35,943 nt of DNA from a virus. Its lineage: Duplodnaviria; Caudoviricetes. The notes under the pieces are model-generated. The model was not told the DNA's origin. It searched no databases and saw nothing but the letters and a program-made list of their open reading frames with translations. Numbering within the stretch: position 1 is the stretch's first letter; every line of letters begins with the position of its first letter. A program made the translations under genes and the position numbers. The DNA is taken from IMG/VR virus record IMGVR_UViG_3300032219_000995, positions 1-35,943 of that record. One strand, given 5' to 3'. Positions 14,729-32,617 of this stretch are shown here, in pieces.

Positions 14729-15388
14729 TTAGAAAGGCACGTCGTCGTTCAAGTCATATTCCGGCAACTGAGCGTTACTTGTAACGCGTGCCGGCGCCGA
14801 GGAATGCGTTGTGAAGCGGCTCTGCCATTCGGGTGACTTCTCAATCTTCATCTTGAGGTTGTCTGAGAAGCTGTTGAACAGCTCCATGTCCGGATTCGAG
14901 ATGGTGAACATCTTTGGCTCGTTGTGAGCCTCGGGCAAGCCACCCTTTTTGATGTTCGGCGGAACCGGGTTGATGGTGGTGATGTTTGTGTACTCCTTGC
15001 CATTGTTACCAATGGTTTTGGCCACAGTAATCATTGCCCAATGACCCAGCACGTTTGCCAGCTCAAAGCCGCGCAGTTCTTCTGCAGTGAAGTCACGGCC
15101 GCGCCAGTTCTTCAGGTCAGCACGAAGCGTAGCGTTCTCGCCAAGACTAACCGTGTAATTTTTGGCAATAGACATCGGCTCGCCCTTCATTGTCAACAAG
15201 GGTTGACCGCTTTCGTCTTCGCTATGAACCTCAAACTGCAGCATGACTTTCGGGAGGTTTTTAACAACACCCATGTACTCGGACTGCTGAGTTCCGAGGT
15301 CAACGATGCGATAGCAACGCGACAGGTGCATGCCCGACGGCACGGGTTTGAAACTGCTTGCTTCTCCAGCCTTCACAATGAATGACAT
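14729..15388 (-). CDS. Phage single-stranded DNA-binding protein (OB-fold type)
   Basis: 'F..VPSG.H.SRCYRIVDLGTQ', 'LR..L..WRGRDFT' and an acidic SSB-type C-terminal tail DDVPF. Confidence 0.75.
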   Translation of the reverse strand: MSFIVKAGEASSFKPVPSGMHLSRCYRIVDLGTQQSEYMGVVKNLPKVMLQFEVHSEDESGQPLLTMKGEPMSIAKNYTVSLGENATLRADLKNWRGRDFTAEELRGFELANVLGHWAMITVAKTIGNNGKEYTNITTINPVPPNIKKGGLPEAHNEPKMFTISNPDMELFNSFSDNLKMKIEKSPEWQSRFTTHSSAPARVTSNAQLPEYDLNDDVPF

Positions 15389-15547: not shown

Positions 15548-15658
15548 AAAATATAACTTTCGCTGTTGGGGAACCTCAGATTACATCATCTGTTGCAGAG
15601 TTACAATAGGGTTGAACAAAAAAAATTGTTGATGTATGGTTGGGTTACAGGAGGATGT
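15548..15658. promoter_or_regulatory. Divergent control region between the leftward operon and the Cro-like gene
   Basis: AT-rich gap between divergent starts, with two GTTACA hexamers and a CAGGAGG RBS before 15659. Confidence 0.55.
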
Positions 15659-15874
15659 ATGACGCTGAAAGAATGGTTTAACGATAAGCCTAGAGGCTCC
15701 AAAGCCGCGATGGCAAATTCTATTGGTATTTCAAGGACTTGGATGGCGCTGCTGATTAGCAAGTCAAGACTTCCGAGTGCCGAGCTGTGCAATGCAATCG
15801 ACCTGTACACGAACGGCGAGGTGGCTAGGGTTGACCTAAGACCTGACCTGTTCGGAGAGCTGGACCGTGCCTGA
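15659..15874 (+). CDS. Cro/YdaS-like HTH transcriptional regulator
   Basis: MTLKEWF...GSKAAMANSIGISRTWMALL...PSAELC.AI...TNGEV...DLRPDLF. The 'LRPD' tail is typical of YdaS/Cro. Strong RBS. Confidence 0.85.
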   Translation: MTLKEWFNDKPRGSKAAMANSIGISRTWMALLISKSRLPSAELCNAIDLYTNGEVARVDLRPDLFGELDRA

Positions 15875-16148
15875 ATGTCTTGGTACTTCTAAGTGTGAGT
15901 ACGCGCCGAGGATGGTGACGCTGCAAGACGGCTGTGTAGTTTGTAGCAACTGTCACTTATGGGCTATGGAATGTGAAGCTAAACGTCTGCTGACCTATTC
16001 ATTGCCCGAGCGTCGAGAGGGTTTAGTAGAGCGCGAGAAGATTCGCGGCAAGACTGCATCAGAGATGTTGAAAGAATTCATCGCCAGGATTCACGAAGAC
16101 CGGCGGCAGAAGGCTAAAAAAATTATTGGCGGCGAGTATGAAAACTGA
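15867..16148 (+). CDS. Hypothetical Cys-containing protein
   Basis: 93 aa with several Cys residues (CVVCSNC, 'ECEA'). Overlaps both neighbours. Confidence 0.6.
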   Translation: MPECLGTSKCEYAPRMVTLQDGCVVCSNCHLWAMECEAKRLLTYSLPERREGLVEREKIRGKTASEMLKEFIARIHEDRRQKAKKIIGGEYEN

Positions 16149-16518
16149 AATCATGTTGCCGTGGCCGCCTAGTGTGAATACGTACTGGCGGATGTGGCGT
16201 AGCAGGATGGTGATTAGCAAGGCTGGCCGAGAGTATCGGACCGCAGTAGCCGAGCAGGTGGCGGAGCAGAACGCGGCCAAGTTTGCTGACAGGCCGGTGG
16301 TTGTGGTCATACGGGCTTACCGGCCCGACAAACGAAAGAGAGACCTAGACAACTTGCTGAAGGCCGCGCTTGATTCTTTGAGCCACGCCGGAGTCTTTGA
16401 CGACGACAGCCAGATACAAGACCTAAGAATCTACTGGGGTGGCCACATTGGAGGGTACCTAAAGGTGGAGGTCACCGATGATTTGGTTCAACCTAATTTT
16501 GTTGCTCAACGGAAGTGA
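16138..16518 (+). CDS. rusA: Holliday junction resolvase RusA
   Basis: 'LPWPPSVNTYWR', 'PDKRKRDLDNLLKAALDSL..AGV..DDSQI'. ATG placed at 16138. Confidence 0.93.
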   Translation: MKTEIMLPWPPSVNTYWRMWRSRMVISKAGREYRTAVAEQVAEQNAAKFADRPVVVVIRAYRPDKRKRDLDNLLKAALDSLSHAGVFDDDSQIQDLRIYWGGHIGGYLKVEVTDDLVQPNFVAQRK

Positions 16519-18792: not shown

Positions 18793-18926
18793 AACTGACT
18801 GTTCTGAATCTCTGGCAAGACTTTCCGATTGGGATGGAACACATGAAGTTCTGGTTGAACGCCGAGAAGACTGTTGGTTGGTACTCGGTGACGGTTTGTG
18901 GATTCTGCTTCATGTTGATGGTGTAA
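18789..18926 (+). CDS. Small hypothetical protein
   Basis: ATGA-coupled to the previous gene. MKLTVLNLWQDF...(45 aa). Confidence 0.5.
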   Translation: MKLTVLNLWQDFPIGMEHMKFWLNAEKTVGWYSVTVCGFCFMLMV

Positions 18927-19007
18927 CAAAAGTTTAACTCACATAGATGGTTTGTGTGAGATAGTTGCTTCACGGCACTTGAGCCGGACAGAGAAAAGGG
19001 GACTGAG
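18921..19007 (+). repeat. Repeated leader/promoter element, copy 1
   Basis: GTGTAACAAAAG...GTGAGATAGTT...CACGGC...GAGCCGG...RBS, shared with the copies at 23072 and 24264. Confidence 0.7.
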
Positions 19008-20198: not shown

Positions 20199-20408
20199 AT
20201 GAGGGCCTACTGTGACTACATAGCTCACCTGTGCTGTTCGTTGTTGAAGAACCACGACGCGCAGGGACTTATCTACTCGGCCGGTCCTGTTCGCCTAGAC
20301 CTAGACCCGAATGGTGCTTTTAACAGTACTACTAAAAGGTTTGATGTGACTGACATCAACGGCCGGAAATACACCGTGACTATTGAGGAAAAAGAAAATG
20401 TACAGTGA
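20199..20408 (+). CDS. Hypothetical protein
   Basis: MRAYCDYIAHL...DVTDINGRKYTVTIEE. Starts 1 nt after the previous stop. Confidence 0.65.
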   Translation: MRAYCDYIAHLCCSLLKNHDAQGLIYSAGPVRLDLDPNGAFNSTTKRFDVTDINGRKYTVTIEEKENVQ

Positions 20409-20676
20409 TTGGTCAGAGTTTATTTTGCGTGACTTGTTGAGGGGTAAGGCTCGGTTGGTTGCTGACCGCTGCTTTGTCCTCGATGAGACCAGTTCATCAA
20501 TCCGGCTTGGTATGTCTGCTCTGTATCAGCCGTTGCTTGATGACGAGGTTGTGAAAAGCCTTAACAAAGAGTTCCAGGAGAACATCAATCCCGATTGCAA
20601 GGTGAGCGTTGAGATTGCTGAACAGCCAGACTTTTTGCCAACACCAATTCAAGAACGAATGATGAGGCGTCAATGA
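20398..20676 (+). CDS. Protein resembling DNA polymerase III tau (DnaX) C-terminal domain V
   Basis: 'DW.....L.G.AR.VA..C......I.L......L......L...........VSVEI......TP.Q.R' follows the tau domain V pattern as judged by eye. GAGG RBS. Confidence 0.5.
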   Translation: MYSDWSEFILRDLLRGKARLVADRCFVLDETSSSIRLGMSALYQPLLDDEVVKSLNKEFQENINPDCKVSVEIAEQPDFLPTPIQERMMRRQ

Positions 20677-20963
20677 GTGAAATTACTTGGTACACCGCAA
20701 AAAATATAGAAGGCCAAAAAAAACTGCCTAAGTGGTTCAGAACAACTGGACTGTCTGATGATGGAGTTGTTTACATTCCAGCAGCAGCTTTGGGGGATGA
20801 GAACTTTGTTTTCTATTCGGCGCTGTTTGATGGCACCAGTGTGGCTATTGATAACGAACGTTTGTACATCAACACCAAATGGCTAGTTCAGCAGTTTCCA
20901 GACTTTGCTAATGAACTTACATCTTTGGAACAAAAGATAAAGGCTAAGGCTGCAAAACAATGA
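20673..20963 (+). CDS. Hypothetical protein
   Basis: 96 aa, ATGA-coupled, GAGG RBS. Confidence 0.7.
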   Translation: MSEITWYTAKNIEGQKKLPKWFRTTGLSDDGVVYIPAAALGDENFVFYSALFDGTSVAIDNERLYINTKWLVQQFPDFANELTSLEQKIKAKAAKQ

Positions 20964-21417: not shown

Positions 21418-21600
21418 ATGAACGAGAAACGCCAGAGGGCATTTGATGATTGGTGGTTGTTACATGCAACGCCTGAAAGCCGGACCACACCCAGTGCAAT
21501 TTGGGAATCTGCATGTGACTGGATGAAGCAAGAGCTTATTTCAAAGTTTGAATCAAATCATGCTCGGGTTAACAATCGTCCGAGCGTATTCCCCGAATGA
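21418..21600 (+). CDS. Hypothetical protein
   Basis: MNEKRQRAFDDWW...IWESA. Its 3' end overlaps the convergent phosphoesterase gene. Confidence 0.5.
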   Translation: MNEKRQRAFDDWWLLHATPESRTTPSAIWESACDWMKQELISKFESNHARVNNRPSVFPE

Positions 21601-22710
21601 TGAATGGTAAGTAATACATTGGGCGTCGCGCTGGCTTCTATAGCCGGCGTTGTGCGCCCAGAGGTCTGACGGTTGAAGAACTCGATGAGTCTCAACTGAC
21701 ACGCCCGGAAGGTCTTTAAGGGTCTTGTGGTGGACGTGACCGAGGTGTGCATACCTGTGTGTACATTGTCCCCACATCACCGCCTGGTCAGAAGCCATGA
21801 CGCCTAACATCTGTTCCATCTTGACTGTGTCGCCATGAGTGGCGGCCAGCATGACTGACCCAAACTGCATGTAGTAAAACTTGTTGGCAGAAGTCTCAAT
21901 GTGGACGCGAGGTTCATTCTCGTATGCGACCTGCAGCCAAAGGGACAGGTCTACAGCCGAGTAGTCGTCATGATTCCCGATGATGTTCCAGACGATGACT
22001 TTGTCATGTTTGCGCAGGCACATCTGAATCATTGACCGCAGGATGCGGAAGCCTACCTTGCGGACCTTCTGGTAACGTCCGTCGACGTCAAGGTGGTGCG
22101 AACTTCTGAGCGTGACATTCCTGCCATCATCAGCGTGAAAATAATCACCAAGGTTGAGAATGAGGGCTGTTGTCGCTGATGGGGAGCGCTCAACTAAGTC
22201 ATCGTGGGCTTTAGTGAATAGTTGTTCTGCTAGTTCAAGGTCGTGGTCGTGTCCAACTTCCTCATGCCATGACCTTTGGCCGACGTGAGGGTCCCCGTAC
22301 ACAAAACAGTTGAGTAACCGGCTGTCTGGCTGTTGAGTGCCAGGATTTGTCGGAGCCACTCGGACGATGTCGTCTTTGAATGCTTCAAGAAAGGCTTCTT
22401 GGATTTCGCGCGCGGTTTGTTTGTCTTGCGTAGACTTGACCCATTGTCCAGCAGCTTGCCCGTCTTTGTTGTAGTATGTACTCACACCCCTCACAACAAA
22501 GCCCTCGGGAACTGTATGGACCATGTCATGCTCTGGACTGAGACCTCGGCGAGCTGCTCGAATCTTCAGTCTTTGCAGTGCGCGCTCCAACGAGCGTCTG
22601 TTGATGCCTAATTCTTTTGCCGCGGCGGTTTGATTACCAAATTGCTCAATCGCATCAAGAATTTCGTGGTCACGAACGGTCGCAAACTCTCTTAAATGTT
22701 TCATAAACAT
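21553..22710 (-). CDS. Calcineurin-like metallophosphoesterase with N-terminal HTH
   Basis: Ordered metal-binding motifs GDPHVG, LGDYFH, GNHD, THGD, GHVHH. N-terminal 'GNQTAAAKELGINRRSL' is a Fis-type HTH. Confidence 0.85.
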   Translation of the reverse strand: MFMKHLREFATVRDHEILDAIEQFGNQTAAAKELGINRRSLERALQRLKIRAARRGLSPEHDMVHTVPEGFVVRGVSTYYNKDGQAAGQWVKSTQDKQTAREIQEAFLEAFKDDIVRVAPTNPGTQQPDSRLLNCFVYGDPHVGQRSWHEEVGHDHDLELAEQLFTKAHDDLVERSPSATTALILNLGDYFHADDGRNVTLRSSHHLDVDGRYQKVRKVGFRILRSMIQMCLRKHDKVIVWNIIGNHDDYSAVDLSLWLQVAYENEPRVHIETSANKFYYMQFGSVMLAATHGDTVKMEQMLGVMASDQAVMWGQCTHRYAHLGHVHHKTLKDLPGVSVETHRVLQPSDLWAHNAGYRSQRDAQCITYHSSFGEYARTIVNPSMI

Positions 22711-22989: not shown

Positions 22990-23064
22990 CGCGGGGTAGT
23001 GGAGAGGTACGCACGTCAGCCCCATAAGCTGAAGACGCAGGTTCGAATCCTGCCCCCGCAACCA
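22990..23064 (+). tRNA. tRNA-Met(CAT), initiator (fMet)-type acceptor stem, atypical anticodon arm
   Basis: Acceptor CGCGGGG/CCCCGCA with a C1xA72 mismatch, discriminator A and encoded CCA. T arm GCAGG-TTCGAAT-CCTGC. Anticodon arm TCAGC-CCCATAA-GCTGA. Confidence 0.9.
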
Positions 23065-24263: not shown

Positions 24264-24351
24264 GTGTAACAAAAGATTCACGCACACAGGGATTGCATGT
24301 GAGATAGTTACATCACGGCGAACGAGCCGGGCAGCGAAGGAGAGGTTGAAC
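24264..24351 (+). repeat. Repeated leader/promoter element, copy 3
   Basis: GTGTAACAAAAG...GTGAGATAGTT...CACGGC...GAGCCGG...AAGGAGAGG, closely matching copy 1. Confidence 0.7.
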
Positions 24352-24701: not shown

Positions 24702-25208
24702 ATGGAACAACCTCCGCAAAAGAAATCCGGCCAGCCGAAGCGTATTGGCCGTCCCTCTAAGTACACACCAGAACTAGTCCAAGAGATTGCCCAGCGACTA
24801 TCTGAAGGTGAGCCTCTTCGACAAATATGTCGTGACGCTCATATGCCTGAATGGCGCACAGTTTACGATTGGATGTATAAGGATGAATCGCTTTCCGCAG
24901 CCATCGCGAAAGCTAGAGAATTAGGGCAAGAAGCCATTGCTGAGGATATTCTTCGAGAGATTAACGAAGAGCCTGAGCGCATATTATCTGAGGGTGGTGG
25001 GCGCATTGATTCTGGATATGTGCAACTGATTCGTGCCCGCGCAGATATTAAACTGAAGTTATTGGCCAAGTGGAATCCGAAGCGTTACGGTGACCGCATT
25101 GCTCTTGCCGGTGATTCTGAAGCGCCTGTAGTCGTACAGAACCAGACCACTGATGAAGTCCGCGAGATGCTCAAGATGATTGAGATGAAGGTGCGCGGAG
25201 TTGATTGA
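24702..25208 (+). CDS. terS: Terminase small subunit (Sf6 gp1-like)
   Basis: 'GRPSKYTPEL...I..RLSEGEPLRQIC....MP...TVYDW...ARE.G' and 'KW.PKRYGD'. Directly upstream of terL. Confidence 0.92.
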   Translation: MEQPPQKKSGQPKRIGRPSKYTPELVQEIAQRLSEGEPLRQICRDAHMPEWRTVYDWMYKDESLSAAIAKARELGQEAIAEDILREINEEPERILSEGGGRIDSGYVQLIRARADIKLKLLAKWNPKRYGDRIALAGDSEAPVVVQNQTTDEVREMLKMIEMKVRGVD

Positions 25209-27465
25209 ACTGGCTGACAAACTGCACAAGTTATCAGAGCACGAGCAGGTTGCTGTCGCCGCTAGAATCAAATGGCTTGCTGGTGCGCATAAGTATCAAG
25301 TCCCTCCACCGCTTGAGGTGGACTACACAGTATGGATGATGCTTGCAGGGCGGGGAGCGGGGAAGACCAGAAGCGCTGCTGAAGCCCTTTGGTGGTGGGC
25401 ATGGACTCACCCAGAGTCACGATGCCTAGTGCTGGCTCCTACATCTAATGACGTGAAGTTCACCTGTATGGAAGGTCAGTCAGGATTGCTGTCTGTAATC
25501 CCGCAGGCTCTTATCAAGGACTACAACAAGCAAGACCACCAAATCATCCTGACGAACGGGTCTAGCATCCGTGGTATCTCAGGGGACTCATACGAGCGTC
25601 TACGGGGGCCACAGTTCCACTTCGCCTGGTGCTGCCTTGGCGGAACAGGAATCTTGCTTCCTGATGGCTCTGAGAAGCCTATAGAGCAGGTTAGCATCGG
25701 CGATGTAGTTCAAACTCGACACGGCCCTAGAAAGGTACTAGCCGCAGGAGTCTCTGGTAACACCAATGAGTTGGCAACCATTACTGTTGGGTCAACGCGA
25801 TTGACCACGACTATTGACCACCCTATACTTATTGATAATCGCTGGGTTAATGCCGGTGATATCAAAATCGGAGATAGGGTATGGATAAGGTCAAATACGA
25901 CGGAGTCACTTGGCACAAAAGACCAAGCGGTCATTTCCACAATAAGCGCCGAGGGTATTTGCACAGATACATCTGGGAGCAAGCCAACGGAAGCATTCCT
26001 AGCGGATACGTCGTACATCACAAAAATCACGATGCCGAAGACAATCGGCTCGAGAATCTGGAATGCATGTCTGCGCACGAGCACATGGTTCACCACGCTA
26101 CTGGGCGCGCCACATCGGATGCTCAGAAGAGCGCTGCGTCAGCAGGAATGCGGAATAGGTGGAGTGCCCGACCATTCAAGCCCTGCGTCTGCAAACAGTG
26201 TGGCAACGAGTTTGAATCCAGAGCCGTTACACCAAGAGCGTTCTGCTCTTCAGAATGTACAGAGCGATGGCGCTCCAATGCATTCGTTCCAGAGGTGCGA
26301 AAGTGTGAGTGGTGTAGTGTTGAATACACCGCAGTCAAGCGAGTTCAACGATATTGCAGCAAGTCCTGCCGATGCAAAGCCTTTGGAAAGATTCCAGCCA
26401 GAGTTCCAGATGGCGGAGGTCGTCAGCGTCGAAAGGTCTCCGAATCAAACAACCTATAACCTAACCGTCGAGGGCGAACACGAGTTTGTTGCCAACGGCA
26501 TCGTGGTTCACAACTGTGACGAGCTAGCAGCCTTCCAGTACTTGAGAGACGCATGGGACATGATGATGTTCGGTCTGCGTCTAGGTGAACAGCCGAGAGT
26601 TATTGTTACTACTACGCCGAAGCCTAAAGACCTAATCCTTGAGTTAGTAGATAGGGAAGACTGCATCGTCGACCGAGCATCGACCTATGAGAACATCAAG
26701 AACCTTGCGCCGTCCTTTGCACAGCAGCTAGAACAATATAAAGGCACGAAGCTCTATGAGCAGGAAGTCCTCGGTCAGATTGTCGACCTCGAGGATGGCA
26801 AGGTGGTCAGCCGTGACATGTTCCGCCTGTGGCCTGCTGGTAAGCCCTTTCCAAAGTTCGAGTTTATTGTCCAGTCTTACGATTGCGCGTTCAGCGAGAA
26901 GACTCACAACGACCCGACAGCCTGCACGACGTGGGGCGTGTTCAAACCTCTTGATGGCCCGATGTCTGTATTACTGATTGACTGCTGGGCTGAACACCTG
27001 TCGTTTCCTAACCTCAAACCTAAAGTGATTGAAGAGTTCAGGGTGTCGTACGGTGAGGGCAAGGACGCGAAGAAGCCCGACCTGATTCTGGTTGAGGATA
27101 AGGCCGCTGGCATCTCTCTCATCCAGGAACTTCAGAAAGCCCACCTGCCTGTGCGTTCATATAATCCTGGCCGCGCCGATAAAATGCAGCGCCTGCAAAT
27201 CGCTGCAGCTATCTTCGCCGCTGGACGAGTGTGGTTGCCTGAATCCCAAAACAGGAAGGGATTCGTCAGAGACTGGTGCGAGGGCTTCCTCAGCCAGATT
27301 TGTAGCTTCCCTGATTCAGAGCATGACGATTATGTAGACTCTGCATCACAAGCCGTTAGATTGTTGAAAGATATGGGGTTCCTTGATATAGACCCCGAGC
27401 CGAGATACGATGACGATGATTTAGTTGATGCTAAACCCGCAAAGGTGAATCCATATGCCATCTAA
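25201..27465 (+). CDS. terL: Terminase large subunit, intein-containing
   Basis: Walker A 'AGRGAGKT', Walker B restored as FHFAW/CDELAA after splicing, coupling motif 'VTTTPK', nuclease motifs 'SYDCA', 'VEDKAAG', 'HDDYVD'. Non-ATG start, position uncertain. Confidence 0.95.
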   Translation: MIELADKLHKLSEHEQVAVAARIKWLAGAHKYQVPPPLEVDYTVWMMLAGRGAGKTRSAAEALWWWAWTHPESRCLVLAPTSNDVKFTCMEGQSGLLSVIPQALIKDYNKQDHQIILTNGSSIRGISGDSYERLRGPQFHFAWCCLGGTGILLPDGSEKPIEQVSIGDVVQTRHGPRKVLAAGVSGNTNELATITVGSTRLTTTIDHPILIDNRWVNAGDIKIGDRVWIRSNTTESLGTKDQAVISTISAEGICTDTSGSKPTEAFLADTSYITKITMPKTIGSRIWNACLRTSTWFTTLLGAPHRMLRRALRQQECGIGGVPDHSSPASANSVATSLNPEPLHQERSALQNVQSDGAPMHSFQRCESVSGVVLNTPQSSEFNDIAASPADAKPLERFQPEFQMAEVVSVERSPNQTTYNLTVEGEHEFVANGIVVHNCDELAAFQYLRDAWDMMMFGLRLGEQPRVIVTTTPKPKDLILELVDREDCIVDRASTYENIKNLAPSFAQQLEQYKGTKLYEQEVLGQIVDLEDGKVVSRDMFRLWPAGKPFPKFEFIVQSYDCAFSEKTHNDPTACTTWGVFKPLDGPMSVLLIDCWAEHLSFPNLKPKVIEEFRVSYGEGKDAKKPDLILVEDKAAGISLIQELQKAHLPVRSYNPGRADKMQRLQIAAAIFAAGRVWLPESQNRKGFVRDWCEGFLSQICSFPDSEHDDYVDSASQAVRLLKDMGFLDIDPEPRYDDDDLVDAKPAKVNPYAI
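25630..26514 (+). mobile_element. Intein (295 aa) in the TerL Walker B motif
   Basis: Block A 'CCLGGTGILLPDGSEKPIEQV.IGD.V', block B 'TIDHPIL', block F 'TYNLTVEGEHEFVANG', block G 'VVHN' followed by the +1 Cys. Confidence 0.95.
25881..26459 (+). CDS. HNH homing endonuclease with Cys4 zinc-finger repeats, overprinted inside the intein
   Basis: 'YLHRYIWE...G.IP.GYVVHHKNH...DNRLENLE' HNH core and two CxxC...[FY]CSxxC repeats. Own GGAG RBS and ATG. In the -1 frame relative to terL. Confidence 0.9.
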   Translation: MDKVKYDGVTWHKRPSGHFHNKRRGYLHRYIWEQANGSIPSGYVVHHKNHDAEDNRLENLECMSAHEHMVHHATGRATSDAQKSAASAGMRNRWSARPFKPCVCKQCGNEFESRAVTPRAFCSSECTERWRSNAFVPEVRKCEWCSVEYTAVKRVQRYCSKSCRCKAFGKIPARVPDGGGRQRRKVSESNNL

Positions 27466-32020: not shown

Positions 32021-32202
32021 AGTCTCTATCTGACCTCATAAGCGCTGTGAAAGCGCGTCAAGCCGAGATAGCCGTAAGCCTTGCGCGGGGAACTGCGGGA
32101 GACTTTGCGGCCTATCAACGCTTGGTGGGGGAATACACAGGGCTGGAAACAACCCTGACCATTATTGACAACCTGTTAAGGGAAGACGATGACTATGAAT
32201 GA
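32017..32202 (+). CDS. Small helical head-module protein
   Basis: 61 aa, 'L..G.A.DF..YQRLVGEY.GL'. Directly precedes GroES. Confidence 0.75.
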   Translation: MKSLSDLISAVKARQAEIAVSLARGTAGDFAAYQRLVGEYTGLETTLTIIDNLLREDDDYE

Positions 32203-32617
32203 GCCGGTAGCGTGTAATGACGCTGATTTGCGGGATGCTTTTCCTGCTGTAGACCCCGGTGCTAAGCCTCTTGGTGCGCGTATTTTGGTTCAACTGCGCC
32301 GCACTAAAAAGAAGACAACGAGTGCTGGGATTATTTTGGTAGAAGAAACCCGCGAAGCTGAGAAGTGGAACAACATGGTGGCCAAGGTTATTGAGATTGG
32401 CCCGTTGGCGTTCAAGAAGCGCGACACGATGGAACCGTGGCCCGAAGGCTCATGGTGTGAAGTGGGTGACTATCTGCGTGTACCTAAGTGGGGCGGTGAC
32501 CGCTGGGAGGTTGAAATCCCCGGTGAGGAAGAGCCTGCGCTGTTTATGGTGCTAAATGACCACGAAGTGATTGCAAAAATCACTGGTAACCCGTTGACTA
32601 TGAGGGCATTTGTATGA
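32189..32617 (+). CDS. groES: GroES-like co-chaperonin
   Basis: 'KPLGARILV......KTTSAGIIL', 'KVIEIGP', 'VGDY....KWGG', 'LNDHEVIA'. Start may be 32195. Confidence 0.88.
   Translation: MTMNEPVACNDADLRDAFPAVDPGAKPLGARILVQLRRTKKKTTSAGIILVEETREAEKWNNMVAKVIEIGPLAFKKRDTMEPWPEGSWCEVGDYLRVPKWGGDRWEVEIPGEEEPALFMVLNDHEVIAKITGNPLTMRAFV

Follow-up and report, generated by a model that had tools for sequence, protein, structure and literature searches.

The folded core of domain V of the DNA polymerase III subunit tau (DnaX) has no known tight partner, binding of the alpha subunit residing in the tail that follows it and binding of DnaB in domain IVa, where it was mapped to residues 430-496 (PMC1888800). 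In tauC14 (499-625), an engineered E. coli fragment that holds the folded core without the alpha-binding end, the rigid part comprises residues 509-609 and mobility rises from residue 612 (PMC1888800). The fragment is non-toxic in E. coli and, in the available text of the two reports, failed to bind alpha in NMR, gel-filtration and SPR experiments (KD above 1 uM; PMC1888800, PMC1888804). According to Jergic et al., domain V with its tail has an affinity of about 260 pM for alpha and kills E. coli, and deletion of 11 or 18 C-terminal residues abolishes this lethality (PMC1888804). A second contact, made by core residues 530-535 and 562-566 with the fingers of alpha (657-667), was described by Fernandez-Leiro et al. 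for a DNA-free state (PMC4703070). Su et al. found no conserved surface on the core, as far as the accessible part of their report goes (PMC1888800), and domain V goes unmentioned in the accessible part of a 2026 review (PMC13220808).

Host-type domains and look-alike targets also occur in conflicts between phages and bacteria. The orphan antitoxin-like AdfN is reported as a phage counter-defence gene derived from a host-type domain (PMC11825919), and Ronin as a case of bacterial decoy immunity (bioRxiv 2023.04.06.535777). Both resemble the decoy function proposed below in that a domain is borrowed, or a target imitated, for use in such a conflict. They differ in having known systems and assays; for the candidate decoy described here, PADLOC and PHROGs gave no match.

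Here we describe a gene in a 35,943-nt stretch of DNA from a freshwater phage (Caudoviricetes; IMG/VR record IMGVR_UViG_3300032219_000995, referred to below as the window) that encodes a stand-alone core of tau domain V (tau-V).

A tau domain V core encoded by a phage

The tau-V ORF runs from ATG 20398 to TGA 20676 on the plus strand and carries W5, the series L14-x-G16-x-x-R19-x-V21-A22-x-x-C25 and, near its end, T82-P83-x-Q85-x-R87. Nine residues follow TP before the stop, and both the 92-aa frame with these motifs and its termination just after TP are as the original prediction had described them. The features of the locus are collected in Table 1. A scan for promoters and terminators gave no signal over chance level.

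Table 1. Position and evidence of features at the phage tau-V locus (window coordinates).
Feature	Coordinates	Strand	Evidence
Phage tau-V gene, 92 aa; free-standing domain V core of tau (DnaX), corresponding to E. coli residues 520-608	20398..20676	+	homology, profile, fold; purifying selection
GAGGA, RBS-like, 8 nt 5' of the ATG	20385..20389	+	sequence; putative function
Codons 12-17, equivalent to tau 530-535, alpha-fingers patch 1 (DNA-free cryo-EM); 2 of 6 identical to G461 DnaX	20431..20448	+	residue mapping; PMC4703070
Codons 45-49 (PLLDD), equivalent to tau 562-566, alpha-fingers patch 2; 4 of 5 identical to G461 DnaX, variable in the G461 clade	20530..20544	+	residue mapping; PMC4703070
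TP motif with the beginning of tau helix 6 and the conserved stop; tau 609-643 lacking	20641..20676	+	allele comparison, mapping
Upstream accessory ORF, 69 aa, overlapping the tau-V start; an 81-aa ORF is the direct neighbour instead in 4 of 8 relatives reaching upstream	20199..20408	+	
Downstream accessory ORF, 96 aa, overlapping tau-V by ATGA; adjacent to it in only 2 of 8 relatives extending past the stop	20673..20963	+	
Repressor-like gene with DUF7696 and RusA directly after it; site of DUF1376 and DnaB-like helicase genes in most relatives, both absent	15566..16518	+	

The ORF is a genuine gene of the phage, and its product is a homologue of the folded tau domain V core. The similarity lies beyond chance, because tau domain V (PF12170) was the top Pfam family, DnaX proteins were matched and the score with a tau-V profile exceeded that of every shuffled sequence. 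Among 24,736 Pfam families PF12170 ranked first (E 0.0047, model positions 23-105 of 142), with a score of 17.5 bits that lies below the curated cut-off of 28.8 bits, and the sole NCBIfam match was DnaX PRK07994 (E 0.00081). A control profile, made of 33 tau-V domains fetched with a bacterial fragment (P0004) and holding zero phage rows, scored the ORF at 28.3 bits against a maximum of 6.0 for 2000 shuffles, and the ORF was its only strong match among 659 frames of the window. When phmmer was run against 1.84 billion representative proteins, three matches were returned: a near-self fragment of the tau-V gene, a DnaX fragment aligned in its tau-V part without gaps over 85 aa (E 4.4e-4), and a plectin repeat protein (P0003), which was judged spurious as a homologue. 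Matches were found in 31 of 401 genomes sampled from the order of a beta proteobacterium MAG (G001) and in 6 of 401 sampled from the phylum of a second genome (G002). The best bacterial match was the Burkholderiales-type DnaX of genome G461 (37% identity over residues 3-92, E 7.7e-15), encoded in a dnaX-ybaB-recR context. The same protein gave 0 phmmer matches in the PDB, and in the ESM Atlas the top clusters were unnamed, the nearest named ones (DnaA_N-like_STI and PolC-N) being leads only.

AlphaFold2 with a 69-row alignment gave a model with pLDDT 80.7, which leans on the tau-V rows in that alignment. The predicted fold is that of tauC14, with helices around a three-stranded sheet, and the top three Foldseek matches of the model (5FKU, 2AYA and 5FKV; TM 0.76-0.82) were all tau domain V. 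VIA-align placed phage residues 2-92 of the model on tau 520-608 of 5FKU chain E with a Z of 11.6 and an rmsd of 2.1 A for 89 residues. The next structural neighbours, DnaA domain I (Z 6.5) and DciA (DUF721; Z 5.1), are KH type-II-like and related in topology but match much more weakly than tau, at scores within the background range of the tool, and neither family was listed for the phage protein in Pfam at E up to 10. A single-sequence AlphaFold2 model (pLDDT 67) gave nothing in a PDB search, and a fold search of BFVD gave no match at E 0.001. The tryptophan equivalent to W523, the Leu core and the TP motif of tau are kept in the phage protein; the core also carries substitutions, such as D12, and most of helix 1 is lost. 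Taken together, sequence, profile, tree and fold support the identity originally proposed for the gene, a tau domain V core that stands alone and has no alpha-binding tail, and the profile and structural (Foldseek) matches to tau domain V on which that proposal had been made to depend were both found.

Absence of the tail and of the upstream domains

In sequence and predicted fold the phage protein resembles tau domain V (PF12170; PDB 2AYA, 5FKU/5FKV chain E), but it is phage-encoded and stands alone. The AAA+ domain, the collar and domain IV were all sought in the same polypeptide and are lacking; the upstream frames are closed and unrelated. Absent are everything before about residue 519, including domain IVa, the DnaB-binding part of E. 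coli tau, and the 35-residue alpha-binding tail (609-643), and with the latter the conserved C-terminal 30 residues by which the family binds alpha. Only one tau-V match is present in the phage record. Its closest experimental proxy is tauC14; unlike that engineered fragment, the phage protein occurs naturally, comes from another lineage, is subject to selection and extends less far at either end.

The stop lies at the same codon, equivalent to tau 608, in all eight relatives that reach it. A profile of the tail recovered both bacterial controls and had no match in the window or in loci L002-L010. Nine of 11 metagenome loci were alleles of the phage gene (96-100% identical). Since most loci are such near-identical alleles, the stop is shared by 8/8 and the tail profile is negative, the truncation is not an assembly artefact, and the missing tail claimed in the original prediction is borne out. 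The phage gene is thus a true tau domain V homologue that lacks the functional feature of its family. One Logan contig covered the tau-V region without differences and may be the source sample. Two further, weak metagenome matches, L011 (30 aa) and L012 (27 aa), were not scored by the profile used (A1) and were dropped.

Selection, origin and distribution

The tau-V gene is under strong purifying selection, with a pN/pS of 0.047 over 10 alleles (45 pairs; 40 synonymous against 9 non-synonymous variant codons). It is a small, patchy gene in a variable early region, and among the alleles the neighbouring genes are swapped exactly at its ends. One allele (L007:1984-2259) has TAA at codon 2, counted among the nine non-synonymous codons, in an otherwise intact frame and may be a pseudogene or an assembly error.

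In trees the phage protein grouped with seven DnaX sequences (support 100/99 and 99), adjoining G461, on a long branch (1.55-2.57), and its non-core positions were 34% identical to the nearest DnaX. The seven belong to genomes of 1.7-2.1 Mb with GC-rich dnaX loci. Nesting inside this 7-genome donor clade was not established by the AU test, in which monophyly of the hosts alone was not rejected (p-AU 0.174). Five residues of the phage protein (R11, K17, D23, R24 and R36) are shared with 71-100% of the seven nearest DnaX and with 0-17% of 59 others. The GC content of the gene (0.47) matches the phage rather than the nearest tau-V (0.65), which argues that the capture is old. These data point to a small-genome, GC-rich lineage of Burkholderiales type, presumably a current or past host, as the probable donor; the capsid gene of the phage was found in 0/5 candidate genomes of the donor clade.

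The phage tau-V is a rare accessory gene. It was found in none of 50 long records of the phage family, picked by length out of 162 loci and including 22 that are at least 90% complete. No other viral homologue was obtained from IMG/VR with the phage protein or a 4-row alignment as query, and no tau-V from 50,697 GenBank phages with the phage protein, P0005 or the G461 domain. A plasmid search returned one chromosomal-type dnaX, and there was no RNA holder of the gene among the matches listed. A tau-V profile search of proteins of 49-174 aa listed at least 120 matches; of 123 that were scored, 113 had the tail and 10 did not, the latter being the phage gene (two) and, as judged by eye, cut or frameshifted pieces of bacterial dnaX (eight). 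The same search also gave many short C-terminal DnaX ORFs. In L072:242-1902 (G461), L044, L048 and L060 dnaX is split between frames, at what may be assembly errors or slippage sites. The literature surveyed, in which coverage of subscription papers is thin and supplements lie outside, describes neither a phage stand-alone tau-V nor a tau-directed toxin.

Replication genes of the phage family

The phage is a member of a large family; about 2400 IMG/VR stretches match its capsid patterns, the best 80 of them at 93-98% identity. In 35 of 37 related loci with enough flank, which are not all independent of each other, a DUF1376 gene and a DnaB-like helicase gene follow the repressor gene. Both are absent from the window, from L006 and from L186/L187. 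The latter two have the same layout and are probably one phage (record G805, 48.7 kb), whose whole record has neither gene anywhere. Neither the window record nor its closest syntenic relative has a DnaB-like helicase, and the same holds for the complete record G781. A family-A polymerase was found in none of five records, that of the window included. Sub-lineage members keep RusA, an exonuclease and a gene of the NGO0469 family, which in the window (14729-15388) passes the NCBIfam cut-off for 'phage replication initiation protein, NGO0469 family'. The original prediction, that no phage polymerase or helicase is visible, therefore holds for polymerase A and DnaB-like helicase in a record estimated to be about 64% complete; G805 has tail-fibre, lysis and unknown genes in the part that is missing from it. 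Three observations speak against a simple reading of 'no replication genes': the NGO0469-family match is present, G781 is also without helicase, and G805 is without tau-V. At the place of tau-V, after the conserved upstream neighbour, G805 has what by eye is a DNA cytosine methyltransferase-like gene (L187:2079-3425, minus strand).

Possible functions

That the phage keeps exactly the core of tau under strong selection suggests that something binds this core. Our leading reading, of a kind that the original prediction had offered as well and that stays plausible, is, tentatively and at a probability of about 0.4, that the protein is a putative decoy for a protein that recognizes the core on host tau. 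The attacker would be a defence protein of the host or a prophage, or the replisome inhibitor of a rival phage. Having been captured from a Burkholderiales-type lineage that would be the present or a past host, the core may be expressed early, together with the neighbouring small genes, and would titrate the attacker so that host Pol III stays working on phage DNA. The phage presumably depends on the host replisome, probably on host DnaB and Pol III, and would thereby gain from protecting it. Tailed domain V is lethal in E. coli, whereas tauC14 is not, so it is the loss of the tail that would render such a decoy harmless. That the protein ends at the boundary of the rigid segment of tauC14 is as expected if the surface of the fold, and not the grip on alpha, had been selected. 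Also consistent with a decoy are the low pN/pS of a gene whose downstream neighbours differ, the retention of the five donor-lineage residues, and the lack, in the window, L006 and the G805-type loci, of the helicase that most relatives carry. The absence from all sampled family records fits as well, patchy presence being typical of conflict genes.

Several observations weigh against a decoy. No partner was identified, the literature surveyed, in the parts accessible, names no binder of the folded core, and the surface of the core is not conserved in the available text of Su et al. (PMC1888800). Divergence from the nearest DnaX exceeds that of a close mimic of a current host, and given the long branch the mimicry may be loose or lost; the host itself is putative, the capsid gene not having been found in five candidate genomes. 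No extra copy of tau-V that could be a bait-type defence was seen among 251 genomes of the order, in which, with at most 20 candidates scored per genome and the unpublished G593 and G428 included, 229 had a single match, 21 had none and one had two, of which the second sits at a contig end. G805 lacks the helicase as well and yet has no tau-V, so the gene is dispensable for that lifestyle, and one allele has the early stop.

A wider conjecture, which we consider doubtful, is that the tau core has been captured by phages repeatedly, as the point of attack in a replisome conflict yet to be described. In it, a defence effector or a protein of a rival phage would bind the core and so halt Pol III, and the tail-less copy would be a counter-decoy by which a phage that has lost its own helicase keeps the host replisome running. 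If so, the phage core used as bait would give the first partner of a domain without a known tight ligand. The 92-aa protein is a ready bait or competitor, and the partner might turn out to be a novel anti-phage system or replisome contact.

It is rather unlikely, in our estimate, that the domain is an old capture repurposed as a scaffold, whose present ligand would have nothing to do with the partners of tau and might be RNA, a protein of the phage or some other target in the host. The long branch, the full amelioration in GC, the substitutions in the core and the loss of most of helix 1 would all fit such a history; however, no domain and no new tail have been added, and the surface residues specific to the donor clade have been kept. 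Even if merely repurposed, the gene would still be a clean case of a replisome domain taken over by a phage from a donor lineage that can be identified.

Alpha is the sole known neighbour of the tau domain V core, and both patches that contact its fingers (657-667) are retained in the phage protein, the second better matched to G461 DnaX than the first. A free core might therefore compete weakly for this contact and alter the release or recycling of polymerase to the advantage of the phage. We regard this as unlikely, since tauC14 neither bound alpha in three kinds of assay nor proved toxic, and the free core would have to prevail over a tethered domain held at about 260 pM. Prediction of a complex with the fingers-to-tail region of G407 DnaE (28-row alignment) scored 0.00, which is evidence neither way.

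The structural neighbours DnaA domain I and DciA, and the lack of DUF1376 and DnaB-like helicase genes from this lineage, could be taken to mean that a KH-II-like fold helps to load host DnaB on phage DNA. Such recruitment is quite improbable: the Z scores concerned are of background level, sequence and fold point instead to tau, whose DnaB site in domain IVa is absent here, and in G805, without helicase and without tau-V, the gene is dispensable.

Homology to an alpha-binding domain, and the existence of phage replisome inhibitors, of which Twort Gp168 is reportedly one, would favour a dominant-negative inhibitor acting like the tailed domain in E. coli, or an adaptor between alpha and DnaB, the original prediction having entertained an adaptor that modulates the host replisome. 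Both are very improbable, and the adaptor is not supported by the comparison with tau: with tail and domain IV missing, sequestration of alpha or bridging of alpha to DnaB is not to be expected of the core, loss of 11 or 18 C-terminal residues already ends lethality where the phage protein lacks 35, and tauC14 is harmless. That the gene is a neutral remnant of a transduced dnaX fragment, as the stop at codon 2 in 1/10 alleles might hint, is scarcely credible in view of its pN/pS, its own start signal, the exact conservation of start and stop, and the lack of flanking dnaX sequence.

Other features of the window

A tRNA-Met (CAT) gene lies at 22990-23064 (plus strand). The large terminase gene (25201-27465, plus strand) contains an insert of about 295 aa that is missing in relatives and whose ends, by eye, look intein-like. 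Antisense within the early plus-strand region, at 21553-22710, is a gene for a 385-aa phosphoesterase-type 'DNA repair exonuclease' (phrog_704) with a 74% counterpart in G805. A segment of 77-85 bp occurs at about 18921-18995 and again at about 24264-24344 with about 78% identity, before or at the start of two early ORFs, and is possibly a promoter or recombination site. In the head cluster, the ORF at 32189-32617 (plus strand) has a counterpart position in MW202545 that is annotated as chaperonin 10 kDa subunit.
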